Source: Cycas panzhihuaensis
Lineage: Eukaryota; Plantae; Cycadophyta
Direction: 5' to 3'
DNA length: 64,000 nucleotides
Assembly (NCBI GenBank): GCA_023213395.1
Contig: CM041465.1
Span: forward strand, 200,701,741-200,765,740
Positions 9,752 through 49,728 of this stretch are shown here, one piece after another (position 1 is the stretch's first letter; every line of letters begins with the position of its first letter). The translations under genes and the position numbers were made by a program. The notes under the pieces were generated by a model that was not told the origin of the DNA, searched no databases, and saw only the letters and a program-made list of their open reading frames with translations.

Positions 9752-12700
9752 TGGAAGCACACCTCTGGGGGGTCACTAAGTACAAGCATATTTAAGCTGA
9801 CACTACCACTATCCTAAGGGTTTAAAATCTTCAAAGGTAGGGGATAGGTCACACACAAAGGGCATCCATGCATTAGAACGTAGGTTCAGAGACTCGCAAA
9901 TAGTGCCTAAGACTTTCCCTCTTGACAGGCACTTTCTCAGGTTTGATTTAGGCAAGGGCATCCTCAGTTTATCGAGTAGCTGAAGGAAGGACTCTCCTAT
10001 CCTAATGCTAGAAGGAAGGAGAGAAAGCATCAAGGTCCTCTTCTAGGGAAGAGGGGAAGGAGAATAGGTAGGTCCTAATAGGATAGGAACCTATAGAATA
10101 AGTGAGAGAAAGGTGCGAAGGGGATTTAGTATGCGGAAACCAAATCCAAGAAACAAGATCAGTGGTGCCTTTTACTAAAGATCATCTAAAGGGGATGCCT
10201 CTAGGTTTTATACTAAAAAAGGCAAGTTGATTGACTATATTAAGGGTTTTAGGTAGTGTTTTAGTCTTGTTTAAGGAGTAAGATAGTGTGGAAATGTAAG
10301 ATATCAGTGTCAAAAGATGTAGCCCAAAAGAACACACTCTCTCTGTCTTTTCCTATCCTCTCTCTCTTTTCCTTTTGTCAATGAAAGATCAGGTTGAAGG
10401 AAGACGGTGTGAAAGGGAGAGAAAGCATATGAAAGACCTATGCAACCTTTCCTAGTGATGCATGGAAGAAGGATAATTATCAAAACCAAATTTCATTTCC
10501 CTAATCCTACCCTCATACCCATGCATGTGAATAGAATGCAATGGGAAGATGTAACAAGGAAAAGAAAAACATTTCTATGGGTTGATTACTTTTTCTCCTT
10601 TTAAGGGGAGGAATGAGAAGTGTACTTGTTCACACTACCCTTTCAATACTCATGCAAATGAGAAGAAAAGGCAAGGTCTATGCATGCTAATATGGAGTGG
10701 AAGTGCAAATGTAAATGCTCCTTTTTATTTATTTTTTATGAATGCAAGCACACAAGCAAATGATTGCAAGCTATATAGAAACGTGACTAAGTTCCTCTTA
10801 GGAAGAAAAGGGGGGAGGAGTAAGGAAGAAGGGAGAGGAAAAGGATTGGAAAGGGTGCACTAGGAAATGAGCTAGTCAATGGAGTGCCTTTCTTTTCCTT
10901 CTTCATCTTCCTTTCACTCATCACCTTACGCTACAAGTCACAGTTGGCATTGTGGATCAAATCGTAGGTGGGGCTTCCTTACCTTCCTTGGAGTGTATTG
11001 TGAAAGAGTAAAGAACTTGAAGGAAATTTTTAAAGAAAATAAATGGAAATGAAGCCAATGTACCTTCTAATTCACAACATGATCTTACTTGCTTAAGATG
11101 GGTGGAGCTTCTGTGTGAGTAAACCCTTTCAATAACAAGCAAAAGTGTGCATGTGCATGTATATATAGATGTGTATGTATATGCTTGCTAAAATAAAGTT
11201 CAAACTTGCTTAATATTTTGGATGAAGGAAATAATATGTGTTACAACTTTCCTTATATGCCAAAATGTTTCCAAGAACTTCTAAGGGAAACAAAGGGGGG
11301 TTTGAAGGTAAGGGAAATAAGAGAGCCTAAGAATGGCAAGATCCCTCAACTAGGCTACCTCCTATGTGCTCAGGTACTCCAAGAATAAGTTGAGAGAGGA
11401 TTCAAAGCTCCAAGCAAAAAAAAAATAAAGACAACTTATAGAAAGTACAAGAAGTTACAAAAAGCTATAAAAAGCATAAATGTTACAAAAGTTATAGTGC
11501 TGTAAGTTGTGTAAAATATGTAAGAAAAAGTGTAGATCCCATAAAAGACAAAGCATATGAGGAAATTTTCTACCAACTAGTATGTAGGAAGGTTGATTGC
11601 AAGTGTTGCAAAGGCTACAAATGCTACAATCAATACAGGCCCTCACCTAAGGGGTCTCTTGGTGTGTAGGATGGATACAGAGTAGGAAACTAAGAGAGGT
11701 AGGGGCTGCCCTAGAGGATATGGTTGTAGGAGTCAAAACTCTAGCCATGAACTCCTCTTCTCCCTCCTAAAAGAGTCCCATAATCCACCTAGATATACCA
11801 AACATTTTCTACCAAATAGTATGTAGTAAGGTTGATTGCAAGCGTTGCAAGAGCTACAAATGCTACAATCAATATAGGCCCTCACCCAAGGGGTTTCTTG
11901 GTGTGTAGGATGGATACAGAGTAGGAAACTAAGAGAGGTAGGGGGCTACCTTAGAGGATATGGCTATAGGAGTCAAAACTCTAGCCATTAACTCCTCTTC
12001 TCCCTCTCAAGAGAGTCCCATAATCCACCTAGCTATACCAAAAGAATGCCCAAGGGATGTGGAGGTGTAAACAAGGGAGTAAGGAAGGGTTTGTCTTCTC
12101 TTGGACACCGAAAAGAGATGAAACATATACCAAATTTTCAAAAAATAGAGATATTGAACAAGACACACTTACTAAGGAAAGGAACAATAGGAAATAAACC
12201 TATTTATAGCCATAGAACTAAAGTAAAATGGATGTTACCTCATATACAAATGAAAAGGGATAAGAATCTTACTTACTAAATGAAGAAGCGCTCCTTTTGG
12301 AGGCTAGAAGGAGACTCAGAACCTTGAAAATCTTGTTGTTGCTTATGGAGTGAGCACCATAGAGGGAGATCTATTGGAGGGGGCCTAGTTTAGGCCTACG
12401 TTTTATAGTTTTGCCCTTATAGAAGAAGAGAATAGAAGGAAAGATTAGAAGTACAAGTAGGAGGCATTTTTTTTCTTTCATATAATAGCTAAGAGAGGTA
12501 AAATGAACTCAAATTTGGATTTTTATGTCCAAATTAGGGTTCTCGAGTGATTAGGATTCACTTTGGGTGGGAAACAATGGTTTGACATGTGTTAATTTCA
12601 CAATAAATATGAAAATGGTTGTTGCTAGGTCGCAGAAGCTAATAGACAGACGCCAAGTGGAAAACGTTGTGGTACCACAAAGTTTAGTGTGGTACCATGA

Positions 12701-18497: not shown

Positions 18498-20804
18498 TGT
18501 TTTACCAAAACTTAGCTCTCAATTGATTTTTATTATTATTAATAAGTTTCTCACTTCATTTACTTTTGGTATGGTTAATTGAGGCTTGTTTTATATTGCA
18601 TTAGGCTATGTTTTGATAAAATATGCTATTATTCTTTGGATGATATATGTTGAATGATGATGATTATATTATTATACTTTTTTACTTACTAATGAGTGAG
18701 AACTATGGTGATAAAACCTCTCCTTTATGATCATTCTAACTCACTTTTCCTTTAAAACATTCTTTTATTTCATTCTTTTCTTTTTGGTTTTACTTTTTAA
18801 GTAGTATAGTTTTTGTTATTTTTGAGCTTGTTCTTATAGTTTTCACCCCTTTTTGGGTTGCTTTTATCATCAATTAGGTTATTTTTGTTTAAATTTTATA
18901 ATAAAAATTTAATTTTGACCTCTTTATAAGTGATTTTTACTTCCTAATTTATCATAATTTTGGTCCTACCAAAAATGTGATCGATCACATTTTATTAATG
19001 AAGTTGCATTCTTGGTTGTTAATAAAACATGATTGATAATATTTTTTACTATCATGCATGCAATTTTTTTTAATCAGCATGCCAATCTTATATGTTTCCA
19101 CCTATATTCAATGGAAACCAACTCTATTCATACCTAGAACCCTTTAAAACCCTACGGTATTCATTCATTCACATTGTGATGAGTTTGATGCTAAGATTTT
19201 CAGAGTGATTCTTCAGAAATTAAGAGATTTTGGCTCGCTATTTTAGAGATCTATCTTAGGAGAAAAGATGAAGGTAAGGGAAGAAATTTAAAATTCTATT
19301 TACTATCTTATTATTGTACGAATCTCAATTGTTGCTGCTTGTTAAGGTACTTAGTTTATTATGATTTTTTCAGCTTCAGACTTCGTATCCTTGGCAAGAT
19401 CTTATCTACTCTAGTTTCTTCTTATTTGGATACTCTTTTGATGACTTCTTATAACTAGATTTGTTCCTCTTCTTTTGTTAACTTCTAAGAAACCTTTATT
19501 TATGGTTTTCCTTAGGAAACTTAGCTGAAAGTTTAGCCCTTTGTGGGAAAGAAAGGGGTAGACTATTATGAAGAATGATCCATCTCTTCACAATAAAAAA
19601 TATCTACTGTCTCCTAATCTCCTCAATTTTCCAGGTTCCCCAAGAGATCTAATCTCATATTTTCTTCATCTTTGGCTATTGTTGGGCTTATTCTTCACAA
19701 TTTTTCTTTCTTTTTCTTGCTAGTTTTAAGGAAAAACTTGAGAAAGATTAATTATTTTAAAGGGGAATAGTAATTATGTGGCAAGAATCAGTCATTAGAA
19801 TAAACATTTTTGAAAATTATTGGTGTTATATTTCTTAAATTCATCCTTTTATACTTTTCTCTCATTTTAGAAAAGAAATTTAGGTGTTTAAATGATATAT
19901 TTTTGCTGCAATTGTCTTGAATGAGGTTTAAGGATCCCATGTTATTTTAAAACCCTATGAGTGATAGAATCTCTTTGTGATACTAGTCTATTATTTACTT
20001 GTAAGAAGATCATTTATACCTAATTGCATGTCACTTTTATGGACTGTGTATCATTCTTAGTGACTAAAAATTATTTTTCAAATCTCTCATTTTCATTTTG
20101 AGTCATTTTAAAAAAATTAAATGACATGTGAATGAGATGAAAAATTTTCTATAAACATTGCATATTATTTTATCTTTTATCAAGATGCATATAAAGTTAC
20201 ATCTCACAATAGTTAAATTTTATGCTAGTTGTACATGTTAAAAATGTGTGTTGCATTTAAAGGAGATATTTTCATCTTTCATTTTGGTGTGTTTTATTAA
20301 AAAAAAGAAAGAAAAAAGTTACATGTGTGATTAATTTTTCTTACTTGATTTAAAAAGAAGGTAGTTAGATCTTCTTGTCTCTTTATCTCTTTTTTTTATG
20401 TGCTCTCATTAGAATAAAAATAAACTAAAATCAAATAAAAAAAAAAACTTTCCATTACTTAACTCTTTTCTTTAATTTAATAAAACTCAAAAGGTTGAAA
20501 CAATAAAAGGAAATGAGTCCCTAGGAAGGACATGAGATATATTATCAACATAATCCAAACTTAAAACTCCTCTACTTGATTATGTAGGCTAGTGGATTCT
20601 AGGACCCCCCTTACATCCTAGCCTTTCGTTGCTATACTCATATCCAAATTAAATGGGACAAACAGGTGGATACTCCTTCTTAGGAGTTGACAAAGTTGGT
20701 ATTTCAATTCCCACATGCTTCTTATCTCTTGGATTAGACTTGAAATAGAGGAAACATAATGCTAGTTGAGAGGTACTTAGTCTAGGCCCAACTATAGCAT
20801 GCCA
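18498..20804 (+). repeat. 5' LTR of Gypsy C
   Basis: TGTTTTACC...CATGCCA; collinear with 38460-40762, about 80-85% identical by eye. Confidence 0.92.
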
Positions 20805-32487: not shown

Positions 32488-32845
32488 GAAGCTCTGATCC
32501 TTTTTACCTATTGAAGAGCTTAAACTATGACAGGGTAAAGCTCTAAGCCCTTTTATCTATTAAAGAGTCTAAACTATGATAGTATAAAGCTCTAAGCCCC
32601 TTTACATGTTGAAGAGCCTAAACTATGATAGGATAATGCTTTGAATTCTGTCTCCTATTAATAAGCTTAAACCATGATGGAAAGCTTTGAAAAGTCACCT
32701 ACTAATGAGGTAAAACTATGGTAGTCTAAGACTTTAAAATTTCACTTGTTAATAAGCCTAAAAACTATGATAGTCCATCCTTTATGCTCTAACAAAAGGA
32801 CCATCCTCTAAACCTTGGTTAATGATAGATAAACTATGACTATCT
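32488..32845 (+). repeat. Tandem array of ~49-bp units with a conserved TAAACTATGA motif in the 3' UTR of Gypsy C
   Basis: Motif at 32521, 32570, 32619, 32668, ~32712, ~32762, 32830. Confidence 0.85.
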
Positions 32846-32968
32846 AGTTTTCTAAGTCCCATCTTGTTTATGGGCATTTAGTATCACTTTTCATTGAGTG
32901 AGAATAAGTCCTACCTATTTGGGTAGGCATCTTACTAATACCATTTTACTTCCTATTCTAGTTATGTT

Positions 32969-33612
32969 TGTTGGATATTGTGACAACAATTATGAGGCTA
33001 ATATTTTGGCATGTTTTTGGCATGGTTTTCCCCCTTAATCCTTCTCGGGGGGTTCCAAGGGGGGTGGGATCCCCTCTTGGCTGGGGGGTGTGGGGGCATG
33101 GAACGCCGCCCATTAGGAAGGGGTTCAGGGGTGATAGCCCCCAGCCTAAAAAATTATCCATATAAACCTTATCAAAATGTAAAGAGAATTAGGGTTGTTC
33201 AATACAAATACCCTAGATTCTATGGTTGAGATTTAGGTCTTGGATGTTTCTCTCATGTAGCCCGTTTTAGGGCTTTTCTTATTATGTTATAATGTAATAC
33301 AATGTACAGTGATGAGGGTGGCAGTTGGTTGTTGTTTCTAAGAGCACTCTACTACTGAGATGTACTATTTCTCCATTCTACAGCAATAAAGATTGATACC
33401 TTTCCTGTGTAGATGTTTCCCTAGCACACTACTAGGGTTTTACCATGTTATATTGGGTGCACATGTGATGTTTGACTTTCATTTTCATGTTATTCTATAA
33501 TCTCTGATTTTAGAACTTGCATGTAATTTTAAGTTTCGATTTCTGTAACTAGTTGTAAGAATGCAATAGATCTTGCTGGCGCTTAAAGGGTTGGGACCTT
33601 ATATTCTCAACA
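32969..33612 (+). repeat. 5' LTR of Copia D
   Basis: TGTTGGATA...CTCAACA; about 90% identical by eye to 37642-38285. Confidence 0.95.
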
Positions 33613-33683
33613 AGTGGTATCAGAGCCACTTTTTTTCTTATAGTAAGTTTGTGAAGGTTTTAGTGTCAGCTTTTCTACACCAA

Positions 33684-36600
33684 ATGGCAAAACTAGTAGG
33701 TATAAAGTTTGAGGTGGAGAAATTCAATGGCAAGAATAACTTCGAGTTGTGGAAGCTAAAAGCATATGATATTCTTGTATAGCAGGGTTCGTACAAAGCC
33801 CTTGCAGGTAAATCGAAGAAACCCATAGGGATGTACAATGATGAATGAGATGATTTAGACAAAAACACACTTAGCACAATACGATTGTGTTTGGTAGATG
33901 AAGTTTTGTTTAACATCGTAAGGGAGCAAACAACAGCAGGATTATGGAGCCGGTTAGAAGGCCTATATATGACCAAATCAGTAACAAATTGAATCTACCT
34001 AAAGACATAACTGTACTCATTATGGATGAAGGAAAGTACAAAAATTATTGACCATTTAAATATTTTTAATACTCTTATTTATCAATTAACTAGTATCGAT
34101 GTTAAAATTGAGGATGAGGACAAGGCTATTACCCTGTTATGCTCATTACTTGAATCCTAGGATAATATTGTCACCTCAATTAGTTTTAGCACTACAGATG
34201 AATTGGAATATGATTCTATTATGAGTGCTTTACTAATAGAGGAAGTGCAAAGTAAGTTTAGTCTTAAAACCTCCACACCAGAAGCCATGACAGTAAGGGG
34301 TAAAACATTTGAAAGAGGACAAAACTCCAGTGATACATTGAGGTCTAAGTCAAAGAGCAAAAAGAGTAAGCTCAGGTGTTGGCATTGTAATAAGACCGAT
34401 CACCTCAAGAAGGATTGTTACAAAAGGAAAGAGTTCTAGAAAAAGGAAGATCCTGCTAAGGAGATGAATCAAGTGGAGTCAAATCAAGGTATAGATGATG
34501 ATGTCTTGGTCACTTGTAATGTTTCTCATTATCACCATGACTGGTTATTAGATTCAGGTGCTTCATACCATATGTGTTCACACAAGAGTTGGTTTTTATC
34601 ATACCAACCTCTTGATGGTGATGTTGTGCTTATGGGAAACGAAGTTTCTTGTAAGACAGTGGGAATTGGTAGCATCAGAATTAAGATGTTCGATGGGGTA
34701 GTTAGAACATTAACTAAGGTTAGACATGTACCTAATTTAAAAAGAAATCAAATTTCCTTGGGTGAATTAAATTCAGGTGGTTTTAAGTATACAGGTCATG
34801 AAGGAGTCTTAAAGGTGTCAAAGGACACCTTGGTTGTTATGAAATCCTTAAAGAAAGGAAATCTTTACACTTTAGTGCGAAGTACAGATGTTAACCAAGT
34901 AGCTACATCGTTAAAGACTATAGAAGATCCTGCTCAACTATGGCATCAGAGACTTCAGCACATGAGTGAGAAAGGACTTAAGGTGCTGATAAACTGTAAG
35001 TTGCTTCCTAACTTGCAGATTTTAGACTTGGCTTTCTGTAAACATTGTGTTTTTGGAAAACAGTATAGACTCAGGTTTAAAGTAGGGAGTCACAGGATTA
35101 CATACATTCAGATGTATAGGGACCAACCCCTAAAATATCTTATAGAGGATCATTGTATTTTGTCACATTTATAGATGATTACTCCAAGAAGGTATGTGTA
35201 TATTTTTTGAAAAAGAAATCTGAAGCTTTTAGTGTGTTTAAGCAGTTCAAGGCTTTAGTTGAGAATAGTACTGGTAAGATAATCAAATGTTTAAGAACTG
35301 ATAATGGATGTGAGTTCAATTCCTTGGAGTTTGAGAACTATTGTAGAGAAGTTGGGATCGAAAGACACAAGACCGCTAGCTATACTTTGCAGCAAAATGA
35401 CATTGCTGAGCACATGAATAGGACACTCTTGGAAAGAGCAAGAAGCATGCTAAGTAATGCAGGAGTGGAGTAGGGCTTATGGGCATAAGCTGTTCAAACA
35501 GCTTACTATCTGGTAAATAGGTCACCATCACTTGTAATAGATTACAAAATTCATGAAGAGGTATGGACTAGACATCCATGTGATTATTCAAATTTAAAAG
35601 TTTTTTGTTATGATGCTTATGCCTGGACTGACAAAAGTAAATGTTCAAAGTTAGACCCAAAATCCAAGAGATATATCTTTGTTGGTTATGGTAATAAGGA
35701 TGGTGTGAAGAGATACAAGTTGTGGGATCCTACTGCCCACAAAATCACCATTAATAGAGATGTCATATTTGATGAATCTCTCCTTGTAAAATCGTATGAT
35801 GTAGAATTTGAAATGAAATAGGAGCAGCAAGATGAATATCAACAAGTCAAGTTTGAAATGCAGCCATTTGTGGAATTAGAAGAGCATGAAGATCTTTCTA
35901 AAGATGAATCAGCAGCAAATTCACAGGAGTATGTTGACACTCCTCTTCTAATAGTTAGAAGATCTACATGAGTTAGTCATCCACTTGACAGGTACATCCC
36001 TTTTATTTCTATTGCTTTAGTTTCTAATGATAGTGAGCCTGCATGTTATCAGGAAGTAGTAGATGATATCCATGGACAGAAGTGGATAAGGGCTGTGTAA
36101 AAAGAGATAGATGCCTTGAAGAAAAATAATTCATGGGACTTGGTAGAACTTCCACATGGCAGGAAGACTATTGGTTGCAAGTGGGTTTTTAAAAAGAAAA
36201 TAGATGTTGATGAAAATATTGATAAATACAGGGCAAGACTGGTGGCTAAAGGTTTTACACAGAAAGTAGGTATTGGCTTTCATGAGATCTTTTCACTAGT
36301 TGTTAAACTTGTTTCAATTTGAGTGTTGTTAGCATTAGTAGCTTCTCTTGATTTAGAGTTGGAGCAGTTAGATGTAAAAATAACTTTTCTACATGGAGAT
36401 TTAGATGAGGAGATCTATATGGATCAACCAGAAGGGTTTGTACAAGATGGTAGGAAAAAACTTGTTTGCAAGCTCAGGAAATCATTGTATGGTCTGAAGC
36501 AATCACCTAGGCAGTGGTACAAGAAGTTTGATGCCTTCATGGAGAGCCAAGTTTTCAAAAGAAGTGAGTATGATCATTGTGTTTACTTTAAATTTATAGA

Positions 36601-37594
36601 CAATGGCTTATTCATTATCTTGGTGTTATATGTTGATGACATGTTAGTTGTAAGCAAGAGCATGGAAGAAATCAATAAGCTAAAGGCTTAATTAGCTAGG
36701 ACTTTTGATATGAAGGATCTAGGAGCTGCAAAACAAATCTTAGGCATGGAGATACACAGAGACAGGAAAAATGGTAAGCTATGGTTATCATAGTAGAAAT
36801 ATATAGAGAAGGTGCTAACCAGGTTTGGTATGGCAAATATGAAACCAGTGAGTATCCCATTGGCTTCACACTTCAAGCTTTCTTCAAATATGAGTCCTAG
36901 TAGTGAAGAAGAAAAAGCTTATATGTCTTATATGCCTTATGCCAGTGCAGTAGGAACTTTGATGTATGCCATGGTATGTACAAGACCTGATATTTCACAT
37001 GTAGTCAGTGTAGTTAGCAAGTTTATGGCAAATCCAGGAAAGGAACATTGGGCTACAGTGAAATGGGTGCTTCGGTATTTGAGAGGCACGAGTGACTATT
37101 GCATCACCTTTAGAGGTATAGGTAATCAAGTTTGTGGATATGTCGATTTAGACTTTACAGGAGATTTAGACAAAAGAAGGTCTACTTCAAGTTATGTTTT
37201 TACTCTTACAAATGGTCTAGTTAGTTGGATGTCCAAATTGTAGAGCAGAATTACACTGTTAACCATGAAAGCTAAATATGTTGCTGCAGCACATGCTTGT
37301 AAAGAAGTAATCTAGTTACAGAGTCTATTAGTTGAGCTTGGAAGGAGACAGGAAAATATAAAGGTATTTTGTGATAGTCAAAGTGCCATTTACTTAGCCA
37401 AGAATCAAGCTTATCACAGTAGAACAAAGCACATTACTCTTAAATACCATTTTGTTAGACAGGTTGTGGAAGCAGGTGGAGTGGCACTTGAGAAGATTCA
37501 CACCAATCAGAATTATGCTAATATATTCATAAAACCAGTACTAGTAGAGAAGTTCAAATGGTGTTTGACTTCTCTTGGCTTGTAGGAAAGATGA
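33684..37594 (+). pseudogene. Copia D gag-pol pseudogene (gag, zinc knuckle, PR, INT, RT, RH)
   Basis: KFEVEKFNGKNNFELW; CWHCNKTDHLKKDC; WLLDSGAS; LRTDNGCEF; QLDVKITFLHG; LYVDDML. Scattered stops and a small frameshifting deletion near 35095. Confidence 0.95.
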
Positions 37595-37641
37595 TGAAGG
37601 GTCTAGAAAAGGTACCAGGTAATTATTGTCAAGGTGGAGAT

Positions 37642-38285
37642 TGTTGGATATTATGACAACAATTATGGGGCTAATATTTTGGCATGTTTTTGGCATAATT
37701 TCCCCCCTAATCTTTCTCAGGGGGTTACAAGGGGGGCAAGAGCCCCCATTAGTCAGGGGGTGTGGGGGGTGTAGAATGCCCCCCGCTATGAGGGGGTTTG
37801 GGGGCGATAGCCCTTGACCTAAAAAATTAGCCATATAAACCTTATCAAAATATAAAGAGAATCAGGGTCGTTTGATATAAATAACCTAGATTCTACGGTT
37901 GAGATTTAGGTCTTAGATGTTCCTCTCATATAGCCCATTTTAGGGGTTTTCTTATTATGTTGTAATGTAATGTAATGTACAGTGATGAGGGTGGCAGCTG
38001 GTTATTGTTCCTGAGAGCACTCAGCTACTGAGATATACTATTTCTCCATTCTACAATAATAAAGATCGATACCTTTCCTGTGTGAATGTTTCCCTAGCAC
38101 ACTGCTAGGGTTTTACTACGTTATATCGGGTGCACATGTGATGTTTGGCTTTCATTTTCATGTTATTGTATAATCTCTAATTTTAGAACTTGCAAGTAAT
38201 TTTAAGTTTCAATTTCTGTAACTAGTTATAAGAATGCAATAGATCTTGGTGGTGGTTAAAGGGTTGGGACCTTGTATTCTCAACA
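37642..38285 (+). repeat. 3' LTR of Copia D
   Basis: Follows the PPT; ends CTCAACA. Confidence 0.95.
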
Positions 38286-38459
38286 ACATTAAGGTATATT
38301 TAGTTTGATCATAGTATCTTTTGTAAACTAGTTACCCATCATCCACATACTTTATCCAAATCTTTTACTTTTGAGAAACAAGTTTCACCATGATCATTAT
38401 CACCTTTTACCATCCAACTTCCCTTTTAAAGTAAGAGTTTCAAGTGCCAAGGGGACAAA

Positions 38460-40762
38460 TATTTTATCAAACTTTGATCCTTAATTGATTTTCGTTACTA
38501 TTAATGAGTTTCTTACCCCATTTACTTTTGATATGGTTAATTAAGGCTTGTTTCATGTTATATTAGGCCATGTTTTAATGAAATACATTATTATTCTTTA
38601 GATGATATATGTTGAATAATGATGATTATATTATTATGTTTTTTTAGTTGTCAATGTGTGAGAACTATAGTGATAAAACCTCTCCTTTATAATTATTCAA
38701 CTCACTTTTTCTTTAAAACATTCTTTTATTTTGTTATCATCTTTTTAGTTTCACCTTTTAAATCATCCCCTTTTCACTATTTTTGGGCCTATACTTATAG
38801 TTTTCACATCTTTTTGGGGTTCTTTTGTCATTGATTAAGTTATTTTTATTTAAATTTTATAATAAAAATTTAATTTTGACCTTTTAATTAGTAAGTTTTA
38901 CTTCCTAATTTATTGTATTTTTGGTCTTGCTAAAAATGTAATCGATCGCATTTTATTAATGATGTCATATTTTTTATTATTAATAAAACATGATTGGTCA
39001 TATTTTGTACTATCATACATGTAAAATTTTTAATCAATACACTAATTTTATAGGCCACCACCTAGATTCAGTGGAAACTGACTCCACTCATGCCTTGAAC
39101 CCTCTAAAACCCTAGAGTGTTCATTCATTTGCATTGTGATGAGCTTGGTGCTAAGGTTTTGAGAGTGATTCTTCAAAAATTAAAATATTTTAGCTTGTTA
39201 TTTTGGAGATCTATCTTAGAAGAAAAGATGAAGTCAAGGGAAGAAATTTAAAGTTCTATTTGCTATCTTACTATCGTATGAATCTTAATTATTATTGCTT
39301 GTTAAGATACTTGGTTTATTATGATATTTTTAGCTTTAGACTTTATATCCTTGGTAAGATCTTATCTACTCTAGTTTCTTCTTGTTTGGCTACTCTTTTG
39401 ATGACTTGTTATGACTAGATTTGCTCCTCTCCTTTTGTTGACTTCTAAGAAACCTTTATCTATGTTTTTCCTTGGAAAACTTGGCTAAAAGGCCAGCCCT
39501 TTATATGAAATAAAAAGGGTAGACTATTGTGAAGAAGGATCTATCTCTTCACTATAAAAAATAGCTACTCTCTCCTATTCTCCTCAGGTATCTAGGTTTC
39601 CCAAGAGATCTAGTCTCATCTTTTCTTCGTCTTTAGCTATTATTGGACTTATTCTTGATTTTTCTTTCTTTTTCTTTCTAGTTTTAAGGAAAAACTTAAG
39701 AAGATTATTTATTTTAAAGGGGAGACAACAATTCCGAGTCAAGAATCAATCATTAGAATAAAAAATTCTAAAACTTGTTGGTGTTGTATTTCTTGCCTTC
39801 ATCCTTTTGCACTTTCCTCTCATTTTAGGAAAGAAATTTAGGTGTTTGAATGATATACTTTTGTTACAATTGGCTTGAATAAGATTCAAGCATCCCATGG
39901 TGTTTTAAAACCATGACTGCTAGAATCTCTTTATGTTACTAGTCTATTATCTTTTTGTAAGAAGATCATCTATATATAATTATATGTCACTTTTATAGAC
40001 TGTATATCATTCTTAGTGGCTAAAAATTATTTTTGAAATCTTTCATTTTCTTTTTTAGTCATTCTTTAAAAATAAAATAACATGTGAATGAGATTAAAAG
40101 ATTTCTATAAATATTTCATATTATTTTATATTTCATCAAGTTGCATATAGAGTTGCATCTCATAATAGTTACATTTCATGCTAGTTGTGCTTGTTAAAAA
40201 AGTGCATTGCATTTAAAGGATACTTACATCTTTCATTTTAGTGTATTTCATTTAAAAAATAAAACAAACAAGAAGTTGCATAAGTGATTAATTTTTCTTA
40301 CTTGATTTGAAAAGAAGATAATTAGATCTTTTTTGTCTCTTTGTCTATTTTTTTGTGTGCTCTCATTAAAATAAAAATAAAACAAAAAGAAAAAAGAAAA
40401 AATGCCTTTCCATTTCTTAACCCTTTTCTTTATTTTAATAAAACTCAAAAGGTTGAAATAATAAAAGTAAATGAGTCCCTAGGAAGGAGACAAGATACAT
40501 TATCAGCATAATCTAAACTTATAACTCCTCTACCTGATTATATAGGCTAGTGGATTCTAGTACATCCTTTACATCTTAGCCTTTCATTATTATACTTATA
40601 TCTAAATTAAATAAGACAAATAGGTGGAGACTCCTTCTTAGTAGTTGGAAAAGGTGGTGTTCCAATTCCCATAGGTTTCTTATCTCTTATCTCAGACTTG
40701 AAATGGAGGGAACATACTGATAGTTGAGAGATACTTAGTTTGGGCCTAACTAAAGCATGCTA
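38460..40762 (+). repeat. 3' LTR of Gypsy C
   Basis: Follows the PPT; ends CATGCTA followed by TSD copy GATTG. Confidence 0.92.
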
Positions 40763-41266
40763 GATTGATAGTTAATGAAGGGATAAACTCTTGATTCAAC
40801 TAATGGATCAACTTGGGAATATGAAGGTGTAGGGTATGAGTACCCACCTCCAACATATAGTAGGCAAGAGGTAGATCCATAGGGAGTATGCCCCTATTGA
40901 TAAGGGACATAAGTGGTATGGGAATATATGGTCCCCTTTAATTAGTAGGGAGGAGTAGCACTTGAATGGGGATATGATAGATAGGAAGGTGGGTGAGGTG
41001 GTCTCAACCCACCTCAAGGGTATGCCACATAAGCAAATGAGAGGTAAGGATATGCCCCTATAGGGGTAGATAAGTGATGAGGTGGAAGGTGTAAGGATGC
41101 AAGCCTCTCTTAATAAGAGCCCACATGAGCATAGAGTAGGATGCATGAGATGTGGGATGAGGAATAGGGCTTTTCCGATAGGGTCTACCAATGTGGGGGA
41201 TAACCCCATATGGGTGGAGAGGGCTTGCCCCATAGGTAGGAAGGGGGTTTAAGCCCCCATGCCCCT

Positions 41267-41708
41267 TGTGAGAATAGATATCATGCACAATGTCATAGGA
41301 TCAAGAAGACAGAAAATTACAAGTAAACAGACATTGCACACGTACACAGATTTTACCAAGTGGAAAACCCCTTATGGGGAAGAAAAAACACCTCCTAAGC
41401 TATGATTTTATTTATATCAGAAACTATACAAAGACCATAAAAATACCCTCTAAATACAACAAACTAGCCTTTGAAATAGGCTTTAGACAACCTTCTAGAT
41501 TCTTGAAACCATCTCCTTGAATCTAGGAGAGGGTATTAATAACAAGAAAGGTTCGTTGAAATGGGCAGTTACACATTTCAATGACCTTTCACATAATAAT
41601 AACATTAACTCTTAACTTTAAACCTTTGAATCACTTAAATATTTATTTATACATGTGACATAAATATAACATAACCATTAAATAAAACTAACATTAATAA
41701 TCCTAACA
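41267..41708 (-). repeat. 3' LTR of Copia E
   Basis: TGTGAGAATAG...TCCTAACA. Confidence 0.95.
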
Positions 41709-41757
41709 TCCCCCTTTACTGTTAGCTTTTATAATATAGAAAAAGAAGGTCTTCATC

Positions 41758-44700
41758 ACATTGATCCCCCTTTGATGGAGACTTCTTTTATCTTTAACAA
41801 ATCTCATAGGTTTAGAAACTTGACTTTAGTCAAAGACTTTGTGAGTATGTCAGTAACCTGTAGATCTATAAGACAATAAGATAAATAAATAATATTATTA
41901 ATAACAAGATTACAAATAAAATACTGATGTAATTCTATATGTTTAGTTCTTAAATGTGTAATCAGATTTGTAGTAATAGCAATGTCACATTGATTATCAA
42001 CTTTAAGTTCTCTGGAAGAGTTAAGAGTCAGACCAATTTTATTTAGAAGAGATTTGAGCTAAAGTACTTCTTTGTTGGATTCAATGAGTGCTCAATATTT
42101 AGCTGTAGTTGTTGATAGAGCTAGTGCCTATATTTTTTTACTAGACCAAGTAATTGGTGAAGAATCTAGAAAAAATACATAACCTGATGTAGGCTTACAA
42201 TCATTTATATCACCTGCACAATCTAAATCAGTATATCATATTAAAGTTAGAGGTTTACTACAAAAATTATAAGTTAGTCCATAAAAAACTGTGTTATGAA
42301 GATATTGTAATATACGTTTAGAAGCTTTCCAATGTGATTTATATGGCATTTACATATAACATGAACATAAAGTGACATCATAAGATATATTAGTGTGGGT
42401 ATGAGTTAAATAAATAAGACTACCAATTAGTTATCTATATAAGGCTGGATCACATAAAGGTGTGGAATAATTCGTATATAGTTTTACTCCTGATTGTAAC
42501 AGATTAGAGATAGGTTTAGCATTTTCCATGTTAAACCATTTAATTAAGTCTAAAATATATTTTGGCTAGGATATAGTTATTTTTAAATCATTTTGATAAA
42601 TTTGTAATTCAAGAAAATAATATAGAAGACTTAGATTGGTCATTTTAAATTTATTCATTAAAGTAGTTTTTAAGTGATGAATGATATTTGTTGATGATCT
42701 AGTGATGATGATATCATCAACATATAGGATTAAAATGGTAATATTTTTGTTTTCATATTTGAAATAAAGATTTAGATCAGTAATACATCTAGTGTATCTA
42801 ATTTAAATTAGATAATCATCAACTTTAGTATACCAAGCTTGAGGAGCTTGTTTTAGTCCATAAATAGATTTCTTTAGTTTACAAACTAAATTAGGATTAT
42901 CAATAAAGCTAGGTGGCTGAGACATGCAGATCTCTTCTTTGAGATCACCATTTAGAAATGTGCTTTTTACATCCATTTGATAGATTTCCCAACCAAAATC
43001 GGCTGTTAGAGTAATAATTATTTTAATCATTTTTATCTCTACAATAGGGGCAAAGGTTTCGTTATAATCTATGCCATCAATTTGAGAAAATCCTTTTGTG
43101 ACTAGACGAGCTTTATACTTTTCATCTAAGGTTGTTGAGTTATATTTAGTTCTATAAACCCATTTATAGTCAACTATATTTTTCCCTAGTGGGAGTGGTA
43201 CGAGATCCCACGTTGAATTTTTGATTAAAGTATCGAATTTAACTTGCATAGCTTCTTGCTATACAAGATTATTACTAGCTTGTTTAAAGGTTTTAGGATC
43301 ATTATTGTCCATTATTTTGGCTATTAAATCATAGTTAGCATGTAATTTTTGTGCATGTGTTCACCTAGTATCTGAAGGATTACCTACATCAGATCTAGTG
43401 TTAGCAATTGTTTTCTTTGCCTATATAGGCTATTTGTTGAGAACTAATTATGTAGTTACAGGTTAATTAAGGAGCTAACTTGAGAAGAAGAGTCTATTTT
43501 AGTAGGTTCAGATAGAGTCCAATTCTGGACTTTAGTAGATAAAGATTCTATAATTTCAGGATCAACTTGTTTGTCTGAGGGGTCAACCAAATAGGTGTTA
43601 GTTAACAGATTTTCAACCGAAAGTTCTACATAAGTAGAGGTTGAAGAAGATCCTTCTTCATCAAATATAACATTAAGCAAAATTAAAATTTGATGCATAA
43701 CTAGATCCAAAAGTCTATAGGCTTTAATTTCTTCACTGTATCCAACAAAGATGTATTTTGGACTCTAAGAATCAAGTTTCTTGCGTTTTTCTTTGGGAAC
43801 GTGTCCCTACACAATACTTCCAAAGATTCATAAATGATTGACTAAGGGTTTTATTCCAGATCACTTTTGTTATAGAGTAATATTTTGTAAGCATTTACTA
43901 GGTAAACGATTTAGAAGATAGTTGGAGTAGTTAATTGCTTCTGCCCACAACTTTAAATTAAGATTCTTTGCATGTAACATGCAATGAGTCATCGCAACAA
44001 GAGTGCAGTTCTTGCATTTAGAAATACTATTTTGCTGAGGAGTGTATGCAACAGAATGTTGAAATTGAATTCCATCCTTTTTATAGAAGGGAGTGAATTT
44101 TCCACTTAAGTATTCTTTGGCATTATTAGATCTGAAAATTTTAATTTTTAAGTTTGATTAGTTTTTAACAAGTGTTTCAAATTCTATGAAAATATCAAAT
44201 ACTTGACTATGTGTTTTGAGTGTGTATACCCAACATTTTCTAGAAAAATCATCAATAAATGTAACAAAATAATGAGAGCCAAAGTATGATACTATATGAA
44301 ATGCTCTACATATATCAGATGGAACAAGTTCAAGTAGAACTTTCGCTCTGAATTGACTTTTATGTCGAAAAGGGTCCATGTGTTACTTACCTGTTACACA
44401 GGCTTCATAGACACCATAAAGAGTATTTAAAGGTGGAAGACCATGAACCATGTCATGTCTTTTTAGGTATTAGAGTTTGCCATAACTAGTATGTCCAATG
44501 ATACATGCTAAAGTTTACTGACTCAGTCAGATTTGGCTATGAAGGCACTGAAGGGTTTTGTTTTATTATTTTGTAAACTTATTAAACTATATAGATCTAT
44601 ACTATGATCAACATGTCCTAAGGTAATACATTTAAATTTATTTAATGGTTCTTTAATAATAAATTTATCTTTCTAGAATTCAACAACAAGGTCTTTCTGG

Positions 44701-45974
44701 CAGATTTGGTAAATAGAGAGTGGGTTTGGTAATAAACTAGGTACGTAGAAGATGTCCTTTATTAAACCATCTTTTAAGGTAACATCACTTGATCCTTTTA
44801 CTTTAAGTTAGGTTCAACTTCCAAAATAAATCTTTTCTTTAGAGTTAGTTTTAGATTGATAAGTGGATAAGTTTTTCTGGTGTCCTGTCATGTGATGGGA
44901 TGCACTAGAGTCAAGGATCCATTATGGTGGTTGATTAGTTAGGGCAACAAATATAGAAGTTATTGCCATTAAAGAATGATTATGAGTTTGTTGTCAGTTT
45001 TGTGGTCGAGATTGAGGTCAGTTTTGTAATCTCTTAGAAGCTTTCCATGCTTCCGAAGCTATTATACTTCTACAGACATCAATAGTATGGCCTCTAGTAT
45101 GATAATAGGCACAACTAGTGTTTTAAGAAGGATTTACATTATTCTAATTAGGAAAGGACTGATTAGAAGCATTCTAATATTTAGATGGACTAAAATACTT
45201 AATGTTATTTTGGGAGTTAGGTGGTGAGCCTCTATGAGGTTTATGAAATTTTAGATTACTATTAAAGTTGTTTTGATGTTTGTTTTTATTTTTTAGATTA
45301 GTTTTAAAAAATAAATCCTAGGAAGGATCTTTTAATATGCCTATCTGAATTAATATTATTTGATGTTCTATTAGTTAGTTTATCAACTGATTAAATGTTA
45401 TAGGAGGATTTCCAGTTTGTTGTCTAGTTGTTTTAAAAAAATTAAAATGTTTTGGTAATTTGTTTATTGTAAGATGAATGAGCATATCGTCATCTTTAGC
45501 ATGAGTGATTATTTATTCGGTATCACCTACTTTAGTTTTAGATTTAATATAGTTACCTAAGTCTTTATTAATTAGTTAAATTTTGCATAAAAAATCCTCA
45601 ACGTTAGAAAAATCATCATAATTAAGGTCATACAATTGTTGTTCTAAGATAACTAGTTGATGTGTATCGACCTTATCATATTTTTCTTACAGAGTGTTCG
45701 AGACAGTGGCTAGATCATCTATTACAAAAAACTGTCGACTGATTTCTAGTGAAAGTGAGTTCAAGATGGTACCTAGTGTTGAATCTAAGTTCATCAAATA
45801 TACCATATAGATTTCTGAAGTTGCATCGGTTGGTTTTTAAAATTCACCTGTCACATATCCCCATATCTTTTGCTGTTTAAGCTGATGGGATATACGATTC
45901 CTCCAGTCAGCATAGTTTGGGCTAGTTAAAACTAGAATTAGAACGCATGTGATTTTCCCTAGCATGAAAGCCAT
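41758..45974 (-). pseudogene. Copia E gag-pol pseudogene
   Basis: RT (YKARLVTKGFSQIDGIDY, QMDVKSTFLNG, 42803-43249), INT (YFVTFIDDFSRKCW, 44158-44379), PR (WILDSSASHHM, ~44890-44920), gag ATG ~45974; many stops. Confidence 0.92.
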
Positions 45975-46828
45975 ATTGGGAATTATATGATTTAATTAGA
46001 GATTGGTGGATATAAGTGTAGGTGAAAAAATAATCACTTAGTAAAGTTACCAAACATCAAATTAACATTTCAAAGGCATAATTAAAAACTAAAAATCATA
46101 GTAGGATGAATGAATACCTTTCCCTTTAAAAAAGAATTACACATTCCCCTTTTTCTTAAAAAGTAAATAGTCCCCCTTAACAAAGTAAGTGTTTACTTTA
46201 TAATTTGAGTGTTATGATTCTATTTTTATAAAAGATTATTGTTTTACTATTGTTAATTAGCAAATAATAATAATGCAGGAAAAAATATATTAATTTAAAA
46301 GAAAATTTTATTGTTAATTCTAGTGTTGAAAGATATTTAATTTCTAAATATTTAATGAAGTTTATAAAAAGTTTTTATTGATTAAAAAAGAGAATTTTAA
46401 TTAGAAAAAATATTAATATATTAAAGTAGTATTATGTTATAGGGGGGAACACTGTAGTGAAGGTTATAAAATAAATATAATAAAAATGGTTAATATCCTA
46501 ATCAATATGAGTATTGTATATAATAGTTGATTTATTTAACTGCTTAAAGATGAAAATAATTTTGAAGAAAATTTAGCCTAAAGCTAATTTGGCTTAATTT
46601 GCAAGGTATATTATATATAAGGAGTTTAATTTTAACAATAATGATGTAATTAAGTGAAGGTGTATTAATTAAAAATAATGAAGGTAGAGGATTAATTTTA
46701 AAAGTGTAAGAGACTTTTGTTTATATATCAATTATAATGGAAGGAATTAAATAATTAAGTGTGGGGGGGAGGGGAAATTTAACAAGAATGAAGTAGTTAA
46801 TTATAAAGAGGAAAGTATTAAAATCTAA

Positions 46829-46988
<160 letters not shown>

Positions 46989-47482
46989 TCAATAAAGAAA
47001 ACATAGGCAGACCCGATGAGTTTGTTTAATTGATAAAAGTAAATAAAATTTAAAAACCAATTGGGGTCCAAGGTGGGGTAAGGGTGAAACTCTACCTACC
47101 TGGTCATTCTCTCCATGGCGATGCTTTGTTTCTAAGCTTCAACTGGTTGCAGGCTACGAAGGTTCTCTGGCATAATCGTTGGCATCTCTAAACGGCTTCT
47201 CTGAATTGTTCTTAGGTCAGAAATTTGCCTCTAGCGTACACAACAAACTCTATCATGGTCCACAATGAGAAGCCTATTGCAGTGAAGGTCATTGCACTAC
47301 CCAAAGGTTCCTAGATACTCTCGCAACATTCCCACACTGGTGTGCCCTAGTGGAGAAGACGGTCTCATTATCAGCACTCGTGATCTAAATCACGTGGTCG
47401 TCATTGATAAGTGGAGCATGAAGAAGACCGTCGAGGGTGGGTTACCTTTAAAGATGCAATTGATGTGGTTGTTGTTTCAGGT

Positions 47483-48314
47483 CTTGCCCGTGTAATTCCA
47501 ACCCTAGATCCTAACAATCTTGATCTTTTTACTAACACCATGGACAAGTATGAGAAATTGTAGAAGGTTAGGTAAGGCACCTATGAAAAGGTGTACAAAG
47601 CCAAACACAAAGTAATGGGATAGCTTGTTGCTCTCAAGAAAACTAGACTTGAGATGGACAAAGAGGGAGTTCCTTCCACTGCACTTCGTAAAGCTTCTCT
47701 ACTGCAAATTCTCTCCCAAAGTATTTATGTTGTTTGGTTGCTTTGTGTAGAGCATGTAGACAAGAAAGGGAAACCCTTACTTTATTTGATTTTTGAGTAC
47801 TTAGACACAGATCTAAAGAAGTTCAATGACTCTCATCAGTGTGGAAGCAAAATGAGTCCCCTTCTACCTAAAATTATTCAGAGTTTTATGTACCAATTGC
47901 TTAAGGGGGTTGCTCACTGTCATAGCCATGGGGTGATGCATAAGGATTTAAAGCCACAAAATCTATTAGTGGACAAAGATAAAGGCTTTCTTAAGATTGC
48001 AATTCCAGGCTTGGGAAGAGCTTTTATTGTGCCTATCAAGAGTTATGCCTACAAGATTGTGACCCTTTGGTACATGGCTCCAGAGGTGTTGTTAGGTTCC
48101 ACTCATTATTTAACCCTTGTTGATATTTGGTCTGTTGGGTGCATCTTTGCTGAAATAGAGAGAAGATGATCACTTTTCCTTGGAGATTCTAAACTACAGC
48201 AATTGCTTCAGATCTTTAGGTTGCTTGGAACTTTGAATAAAGAGTTGTGGCCTGGAGTAAATTATTTAAGGGACTGGCATGAGTATCATCAGTGGAAGCC
48301 TTAGAACCTTGCTC
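47483..48314 (+). pseudogene. CDKB: Intronless, circularly permuted retrocopy of a B-type cyclin-dependent kinase
   Basis: ATG 47540: MDKYEKL*KVR*GTYEKVYKAK...LVALKKTRLEMDKEGVPSTALRK..LLQILSQSIYVV.LLCVEHVDKKGKPLLYLIFEYLDTDLKKF...HKDLKPQNLLVDKDKG...WPGVNYLRDWHEYHQWKP*NLA. Single frame, no introns. The downstream CDKB-like residues LARVIPTLDPNNLDLFT lie at 47483-47533, before the ATG. Confidence 0.93.
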
Positions 48315-48322
48315 TGATACCA
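48305..48322 (-). promoter_or_regulatory. tRNA-iMet primer-binding site of Copia E, overlapping the last CDKB codons
   Basis: Plus strand AACCTTGCTCTGATACCA versus the plant tRNA-iMet 3' end AACCTGGCTCTGATACCA (17/18). Confidence 0.93.
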
Positions 48323-48772
48323 TGTGAGAATAGGTATCATGCACAATGTCACAGGATCAAGAAGACAGAAAATTACAAGTAAACAGACATTGCACACGTA
48401 CACAAATTTTGCTAGGTGGAAAACCCCTTCTGGGGAAGAAAAACCACCTCCTAAGCTATGATTTTATTTATATCAGAAACTATACAAAGACCATAAAAAT
48501 ACCCTCTAAATATAATGAACTAGCCTTTGAAATAGGCTTTGGACAACCTCCTAAATTCTCGAAACCACCTCCTTGAATCTAAGAGAGGGTATTAATAATA
48601 AGAAAGGTTCGTTGAAATGGGCAGTTACACATTTCAACGACCTTTCACATAATAATTAAATAATAACATTAACTCTTAACTTGAAACCTTTGAATCACTT
48701 AAATGTTTATTTATACATATGACATAAATATAACATAACAATTAAATAAAACTAACATTAATAATCCTAACA
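48323..48772 (-). repeat. 5' LTR of Copia E
   Basis: Directly abuts the PBS; TG...CA termini. Confidence 0.95.
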
Positions 48773-49728
48773 CCCTTAAGGTTGTGATATGTGCCTTAGG
48801 GGGACATAAAGTAAAATGTCCACATAATGTGAACATGGATGAGTAGAAACTAAACTTCCTTAACCTAGATAATATAAACGCGGAGGAATATTAGATGGAA
48901 GTGGAGGGATGTGGGTAGTAGTGGGTTATGGAATGGTTATTTACAATGAAGGCCAATTTTCCCCTATTTGAGGGGCTTGTGTACCTTGAAATTCCACTTT
49001 ATTTAGCAAGGCACTTATATGGATAGGTGTTGTAGAGATAGCCTCCTGAAGGGAGAAAAAGATAGGTTGAAGGGATGAAGGAGAAGGGGTAGTAGAAGGA
49101 GTAAGTGTCAAGCTTTATAGAAAGTGCTGCAACCACTTATAATGTGGTTGTAGCTTCAAAGCACTCCTCTATAACATCCACCATGTCCCCGTGTGAAGTA
49201 TAAGCTTGGTCGTAGGAGGTAGAAGGTTCTCCTTATCAACCAGAATATTAAGAGAAGCTAATAGGATCTTTCTTAGAATACTAAGTAGAGTCTACAGATT
49301 GAGATCCTCCTATGACATGCATAGGAGGGGCTTAAGGGTCTGAATAAACCTCTAGTTATTTAGTCAAGTAATAAAATAGGTCCCCAACAACTTGGGAGGG
49401 GTCTTAATGTGGATAAGAGGCCTTAAGATGAGGCCAATTAGGGGCATAGAAATCATATACCCAATCCAATGGATGTCTCTTCATCAATGACTCTTGGTTA
49501 AATGAAGCAATGGGAGAATAGGAGGGTTCTACTTCCAATGGAGGCAAACCAGGCAACTGACAGGAGAAGCATCACATTCATAGAATAACTAATCTATTTA
49601 AGGAAGTATTAAATAAAAAAGGCATATTATGTGGTGGATAATACTTAGTACCTTAATAAAACCCTACACACAAGGGGGAGGAGGTGTGCAAGATGGCCAA
49701 ATAGGGCCTAAGGCTTTCCTACTAGTGA

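Follow-up and report, generated by a model that had tools for sequence, protein, structure and literature searches.

How did a fragment of a host cell-cycle kinase gene (CDKB) come to lie antisense in a retrotransposon, immediately beside the primer binding site (PBS), with its own two ends in exchanged order? The window, that is, the whole stretch of Cycas panzhihuaensis DNA analysed here, is 64,000 nucleotides long, and all positions are those of the window. The original prediction explained the locus by a single event, in which plus-strand strong-stop DNA, ending in a copy of the PBS, annealed to a PBS-like word in CDKB RNA, was extended around that template, regenerated the same word and returned to the element. 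The contigs used for comparison came from public runs that shared at most a quarter of the window's words and may derive from related species.

The copia element and its CDKB insert

A decayed Ty1/copia element occupies positions 41267-48772 on the minus strand. It has paired TG...CA long terminal repeats (LTRs), a 5-nt target-site duplication (4/5 identical), a PBS and a polypurine tract. The element is composed of the following parts, with the evidence in brackets:

41262..41266, no strand: left copy of the target-site duplication, CCCCT, 4/5 identical to the right copy (sequence)
41267..41708, minus strand: 3' LTR (LTR alignment)
41709..41718, minus strand: polypurine tract (sequence)
41720..45980, minus strand: broken gag-pol in copia order (Pfam Retrotran_gag_2, Pol_BBD, rve, SH3_retrovirus, RVT_2)
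46050..47040, minus strand: AT-rich leader, GC 0.19, with a TA microsatellite (composition; presumably of element origin)
48311..48322, minus strand: 12-nt PBS, presumably of the initiator-Met type (sequence; contigs departing at 48311)
48323..48772, minus strand: 5' LTR, with its TG start at 48323 (LTR alignment)
48773..48777, no strand: right copy of the target-site duplication, CCCTT (sequence)

The Pfam reading, made on broken frames with stops read as X, gave gag, protease, integrase and reverse transcriptase (RT) in this order on the minus strand, which is the copia order. Over 442 aligned columns the two LTRs show 23 substitutions, 19 of them transitions (K2P 0.054). The TA microsatellite of the leader is long (46833-46985). 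The PBS at 48311-48322 is taken to correspond to the initiator-Met tRNA; there are no tRNA genes in the 64-kb window, in which Rfam returned microsatellite and AT-rich noise only. A second, unrelated copia element is present on the plus strand (32968-38286; 647-nt LTRs, 87.8% identical), with a 14-nt Met-type PBS at approximately 33615-33628, after which come a short leader and sequence resembling gag; cargo was not evident in it by eye. The window also harbours a dispersed pair of 2.3-kb repeats (18500-20802 and 38462-40760, 84% identical) and tandem copies, four of 49 nt (32489-32684) and two of 239 nt (11565-12042).

The insert can be read in a single plus-strand frame from 47483 (LARVIPTLDPNNLDLFT-N-T-MDKYE...KP-stop-NLA) that contains five stops. 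It is 75% identical to a Cryptomeria protein across the whole 258-residue query, and in a tree of 34 rows it was placed, on a long branch, within a starred set of 13 rows, together with the 12 seed-plant rows; the host is a seed plant and likely a gymnosperm. As gag, protease, integrase and RT are on the minus strand, the insert is antisense to the element, and it lies flush with the PBS at 48311-48322, both as originally proposed. Transduced genes usually lie in the sense of gag-pol according to the part of a survey used here (PMC7264820), and the claimed departure from sense-orientation capture (cargo on the plus strand, gag-pol on the minus strand) stands. Loose ends of DNA contigs mark host introns at 47533/34, 48149/50 and 48219/20. 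All three are missing from the insert, demonstrating that the template was spliced RNA; an RNA template had been anticipated. Two other interpretations were rejected: a functional permuted kinase, because the frame, although continuous across the permutation join, has five stops; and a LINE-type insertion of the whole cassette, because neither a poly(A) tail nor a flanking duplication is visible. A 1112-nt contig, presumably RNA (X24 record 10), has no more than 35 nt in common with the window (48267-48301), beyond which its CDKB-like codons are different ones; it is likely to represent a second CDKB paralogue.

Junction words, permutation and further host cargo

The words reported at the junctions are at the positions claimed (CTTGCCC at 47483-47489, AACCTTGCTC at 48305-48314, TGATACCA at 48315-48322, and the TG of the LTR at 48323). 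The host-like sequence extends further to the left than the CDKB copy, forming a cassette of approximately 1.26 kb in four pieces. An orientation can be given to three of them, and each of these runs antisense to the element:

47050..47205 (approximate), no strand: GC-richer piece, GC 0.47 against 0.19 in the leader (composition; X4 contigs cover 47076-47233)
47206..47302, plus strand: second host transcript piece (match inside a 2629-nt contig, presumably RNA)
47304..47488, plus strand: fragment of GULLO (L-gulonolactone oxidase-like), with one frameshift near 47453 (HMMER)
47483..47487, plus strand: left CTTGC copy, common to GULLO and CDKB (contig joints, protein alignment)
47483..47537, plus strand: 3' segment of CDKB now in front, made up of the tail of the penultimate exon as far as 47533 and of AACA
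47534..47539, plus strand: permutation junction, AACACC before the ATG (two readings: back-splicing to an acceptor at -6, or a jump that landed 0-4 nt beyond the exon junction)
47540..48312, plus strand: CDKB from the start codon to N-L-A, intronless, five stop codons (frame translation, protein matches)
48308..48312, plus strand: right CTTGC copy, its GC doubling as the end of the 12-nt PBS (contigs)

The proposed permutation was borne out independently by the public contigs. In host-order contigs position 48307 is joined to 47483, i.e. the match goes back 825 positions, and five letters fit on either side. This joint was found in three of four runs (X24, presumably RNA, and X1 and X2, presumably DNA) and again in X24 and X2 in a second contig survey of four runs. 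Consequently, the host reads AAC-CTTGC-CCGT, while the window has the form CTTGC-(825 nt)-CTTGC; exon order in the insert is non-colinear, and the CDKB copy is circularly permuted by one turn, exactly 825 nt between two CTTGC words. The first 17 residues of the frame align with residues that intact proteins have after N-L-A. The terminal duplication that had been described comes down to the 5 nt of CTTGC, as the TC after the right copy belongs to the PBS and not to the duplicated word.

At the right junction, the sequence does encode the CDKB codons N-L-A, but the host word (AACCTTGCCC) matches the tRNA word at 8/10 positions and not at 9/10. A match of 8/10 occurs at 2 of the 825 positions of the circularised insert, one of them being the entry site, and for the six letters that come after the 12-nt PBS a 5/6 match has a p of about 0.004. 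Both comparisons use the presumed tRNA-iMet word of the original prediction, and a literature search for the tRNA 18-mer gave 0 matches. Position 48310 is T, as in the host, and not the tRNA-type G. This places the crossover within the GC at 48311-48312, with which the 12-nt PBS ends, and tRNA-type bases beyond 12 nt were not fixed in the product. Entry from the end of the PBS is still the simplest source of the orientation, while the longer likeness to the tRNA left no trace. The microsimilarity at the switch points is therefore CTTGC between CDKB and GULLO, and GC at the PBS. In the window and in the contigs the antisense cargo begins at the end of the PBS copy. Departure from the window exactly at 48311 was seen in 35 X1 contigs (agreement 0.42) and in a single X24 contig, indicating that many relatives have the 12-nt PBS followed by varied sequence. 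The PBS-LTR word was found 0 times in the viral contigs scanned.

The left flank had been read as the leader of the element. Instead, it consists of captured host GULLO sequence followed outwards by a kinase-like piece and the piece at 47050-47205. The HMMER search with the GULLO piece gave 37 proteins with E <= 0.001; identity to P0124 was 61% over 49 aa, and after a one-base frameshift the piece reads 'FKDAIDVVVVSGLA' where the protein has 'LKDLIDAAAKAGLA'. Its relatives have FAD_binding_4, ALO and GULLO2 domains and are named L-gulonolactone oxidase. A few rows of this search, including the top one (P0122), were dismissed as chance hits to EGF repeats, and a word-index search with the same piece gave no match. 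The last GULLO codons, S-G-L-A, provide the left CTTGC word; the left junction of CDKB is thus a join of host sequence to host sequence. Further left, positions 47206-47297 match the middle of a 2629-nt contig, presumably RNA (X24 record 17), over 92 nt, with 8 other letters and 2 gap letters, and this contig extends beyond the match at both ends. From its motifs we tentatively take the piece at 47206-47302 to be Raf/HT1-like kinase sequence; it had no match in the PDB, Pfam or the protein collection. The piece at 47050-47205, common to sister copies, is probably host-derived, to judge by its composition. It gave no Pfam family and no convincing PDB match (a beta-lactamase with an E of 0.09 was taken as chance), and the database checks did not bear out a suspected resemblance to an auxin response factor motif.

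Contigs over 47380-48322 numbered 110 in X2, 99 in X6 and 93 in X3 and were mostly less than 95% alike. Sister contigs 85-95% identical to the window have the same junctions, and separate insertion sites are not visible in contigs as short as these. Summed depth reached at most approximately 170 over the cassette and thousands to more than 100,000 over the LTR, values that are not copy numbers; the loaded form of the element looks like a minor subfamily. The insert differs from a host-order contig at 33/300 letters (about 11%, which the related-species runs may inflate), twice the divergence of the LTRs (5.4%), indicating that capture preceded this insertion. One contig each of X2 and X6 has a 9-nt deletion at 47553, which marks a sub-lineage of the loaded element.

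Route of entry and nature of the template

We consider that plus-strand strong-stop DNA primed on a co-packaged host RNA, with a probability of about 0.65. As template, a linear spliced CDKB mRNA combined with a jump is our tentative choice, at somewhat less than even odds. In this mechanism, the plus-strand end, stopping at the 12-nt PBS copy, would pair at GC, or at CTTGC if GULLO was in place, with spliced CDKB mRNA in place of the element's own minus strand. RT would copy toward the 5' end of the mRNA, and RNase H would remove the copied RNA and leave the 3' remainder from the entry word onwards. Just upstream of the ATG, RT would jump to the remainder, 0-4 nt past the last exon junction, and copy it to its end. 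CTTGC would be regenerated after exactly one turn because the remainder presumably starts at the entry word. Via CTTGC, RT would move onto GULLO, whether as an mRNA copied during that run or as a piece that the element already contained, and would then rejoin the leader. The loaded element would retrotranspose further, and a later slip at the same PBS end could produce a variant right junction, described below.

An mRNA copied from a plus-strand primer would give an antisense insert adjoining the PBS, and all three oriented pieces lie the same way. The crossover at the end of the 12-nt PBS equals the stop length of the yeast elements Ty1 and Ty3, whose plus-strand DNA stops after 12 nt of the primer tRNA, is displaced and accumulates (PMC5371799, in the portion drawn on here). 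By analogy, the same stop may extend to plant copia elements. The initiator tRNA is described as having a ribosyl-phosphate at position 64, a bulky modification (PMC7694415), which could stall RT in plants, and PBS-aided second-strand transfer is textbook knowledge (PMC6894440). Neither a poly(A) tail nor a duplication flanking the cassette is present. Against the proposed mechanism, entry homology to the PBS proper is 2 nt only, and an insert-free ancestor with this leader, which would map the point of return to the element, was not seen.

The permutation junction, bridged by three listed contigs (X1 record 2, X4 record 27, X6 record 20), bears on the template. At the loose ends at 47514, ...CTTACC is followed by AACATG in a contig that is presumably RNA and by GTATG in a DNA contig, indicating a host donor at 47533. 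The AACA that follows 47533 in the insert is the first 4 nt of the host last exon; that is, the donor is at 47533, but identity to the spliced mRNA extends to 47537. The retained AACA (p about 0.005 at the composition of the insert) is explained by a spliced linear template, and because the join runs 4 nt past the donor a linear mRNA is slightly favoured over a circular one. However, a linear jump has to come down no more than 4 nt from the exon junction, which chance would give in about 1-2% of cases, and must also leave within 6 nt of the ATG, and a back-splice would explain both at once. The same plus-strand entry might thus have used a back-spliced circular CDKB RNA, copied exactly once around, with its donor at the end of the penultimate exon and its acceptor 6 nt before the ATG. 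One turn of exactly 825 nt would be given by the shape of such a template, and the junction is readable exactly at the host donor. In Arabidopsis, the ends of 5'UTR introns tend to fall 1-40 nt ahead of the start codon (PMC1482700, as far as drawn on here), and in the mouse an enrichment of LTRs is described in the flanks of circRNA-derived pseudogenes (Dong et al. 2016, PMC4897178, likewise). By contrast, AACA would equal the start of the last exon by chance only (about 0.5%, higher in an A-rich start context), a 5'UTR intron in this CDKB has to be assumed, and non-colinear copies can also arise from linear RNA according to the same account (PMC4897178). No contig with the host CDKB 5'UTR was present among 21 of the 68 loose ends. 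A metagenome scan for the CDKB 5' end gave 7 loci, one of them CDKB (L001), of a distant non-seed-plant type and uninformative. Overall, we regard the circular template as unlikely, although it deserves serious weight.

The GULLO flank bears on the last steps. An exit back to the element, as originally written, does not fit a left flank that is a host GULLO fragment, and would hold only if GULLO had already been captured, against the PBS. In this stepwise version, which is the original model with GULLO as the prior flank, the ancestor would read ...GGTCTTGC-TCTGATACCA, CDKB would have come in and gone out by CTTGC, and the cassette would grow piece by piece at the PBS. It overlaps with the linear and circular readings, being an alternative for the transfer to GULLO. 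It would account for CTTGC-(825 nt)-CTTGC with nothing lost, its entry homology is 5 nt and not 2, and relatives vary widely right at the PBS end (the 35 contigs mentioned above). On the other hand, four listed contigs bridge GULLO to CDKB, with at least 31 letters on each side (X4 record 27; X2 record 2; X6 records 19 and 20), and there was no GULLO-to-PBS joint among 10 joints or 21 of the 68 loose ends, which represent about half of each DNA run. The predicted empty allele (from approximately 47487 to 48313) was likewise not among these joints and loose ends; as the three DNA runs were about half covered, its absence is not proven. The stepwise version is possible but doubtful. Within the plus-strand model it would take the smaller share, entry of the pieces in one RT run being slightly preferred.

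The original model does not predict the alternative right junction AAC-GAGT-PBS, which replaces AAC-CTT-PBS in three contigs of X3 and two of X6. It also counts against the linear-jump mechanism, in which the order of the two forms is given by parsimony only. The window form, present in four listed pieces (X1 record 8; X3 records 17 and 18; X6 record 24), matches the host through CTT and is on that ground taken as the older one. GAGT makes a near-palindrome with the PBS end and presumably corresponds to four bases of the 5' acceptor strand of the tRNA; it could be fold-back or tRNA-jump filler. A resemblance to filler is also what repair at the DNA level might leave. A chimeric or circular cDNA could have been inserted beside the PBS by microhomology-mediated repair, and much the same sequence would result. 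The setting could be a copy that had already integrated, or the annealing of the second strand by end-joining factors of the host. A circle recombining at the 5-nt word gives the same structure, and alternative end-joining factors including polymerase theta use PBS microhomology in second-strand transfer, according to the part of a review considered here (PMC12786077). Nevertheless, repair gives either orientation and any position, while here three antisense pieces are joined at the end of a 12-nt PBS, and the locus is without a poly(A) tail or a LINE-type duplication of the cassette. We consider insertion by repair unlikely.

Ordinary minus-strand capture would require antisense RNA templates, which read-through transcription or RDR activity would have to make from spliced mRNAs or from older retrocopies. 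That template switching can capture several genes is established (Tan et al. 2016, PMC5131818, in the part used here), and truncated CDKB copies joined to other sequence do exist (loose ends at 47607 and 48029). Yet three unrelated genes would each need an antisense spliced template, and the join flush with the PBS would be left unexplained, making this route highly unlikely. At 47607 the same unrelated sequence is joined to CDKB in X2 and X6 contigs, which represent either a further truncated copy of CDKB or a sister copy that has taken up an insertion. Further rearranged CDKB copies are present in X3, where foreign sequence precedes 48029 in two contigs and 72 nt are skipped in one (48045-48118).

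A broader version of plus-strand priming can be formulated, in which priming on host RNAs, among them circular RNAs, happens again and again in this copia lineage and builds a polar antisense stack behind the PBS, newest nearest, the CDKB piece being a back-spliced plant circRNA amplified in this way. We consider this distinctly improbable.

Meaning and relation to known systems

Gene capture by LTR elements is usually explained by minus-strand switches, which give sense cargo. If plus-strand priming is true, it predicts a class of antisense, PBS-flush captures that can be counted in any plant genome, and it gives a fate to the strong-stop DNA that is displaced in yeast. All transcripts of an element of this kind would have antisense host-gene copies at their start, in this case of a cell-cycle kinase, and antisense CDKB transcripts may feed small-RNA silencing of the host gene. 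If the back-splice acceptor is present, the locus would be a plant circRNA retrocopy with a mechanism attached. A caution also follows, as an exact one-turn permutation beside a splice donor need not be a circRNA fossil. In the literature searched, whose scope left most subscription papers outside, no account of antisense PBS-flush capture was found, and for plant circRNA retrocopies with a mechanism the search gave reviews only.

Laboratory products may come close. Dunn, Olsen and Swanstrom (1992) reportedly described cell-derived inserts in retroviruses that were bounded by a PBS copy, and Maxwell and Curcio (2007) are said to have described chimeric Ty1 retrosequences; in both, cellular RNA was reportedly copied beside the LTR or PBS during reverse transcription. 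Unlike those products, the sequence described here appears to belong to an amplified genomic family.

Among natural systems, circRNA-derived pseudogenes of mouse and human have LTR-rich flanks, and their mechanism is given as unknown in the portion of Dong et al. (2016, PMC4897178) considered. They share with our locus non-colinear exons, the lack of a poly(A) tail and the LTR context. By contrast, our case is from a plant, lies inside a complete copia element and has a mapped entry site, and its junction matches 4 nt beyond the donor, which makes it a candidate member only. The additional ORFs that plant LTR elements have in antisense (Vicient and Casacuberta 2020, PMC7264820) are similar in being antisense extra sequence present in many copies. 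As described in the sections used here, those ORFs are mostly between pol and the 3' LTR, conserved and without a host source, whereas the insert is at the PBS, host-derived and full of stops. The displaced plus-strand strong-stop DNA of Ty1 and Ty3 has the same 12-nt copy of the initiator tRNA and is free to prime elsewhere (PMC5371799); in the yeast account, as far as drawn on here, it is a dead end, whereas here it would have primed on a host RNA and been rescued into a transposing element.

The closest parallel is LTR-mediated retroposition (Tan et al. 2016, PMC5131818, with maize Bs1 cited there; see also the review PMC5408686), in which, in the parts of these accounts considered, several genes are captured per cassette at short shared words and later amplified with the same switch points. 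Partial intronless host mRNAs and short shared words are common to both systems. In the cassette described here, compared to theirs, the cargo is antisense, PBS-flush and permuted, and gag-pol is kept. Plus-strand or PBS-primed capture is absent from the same portion of the Tan et al. account. The locus works like LTR-mediated retroposition, minus its sense-orientation feature.
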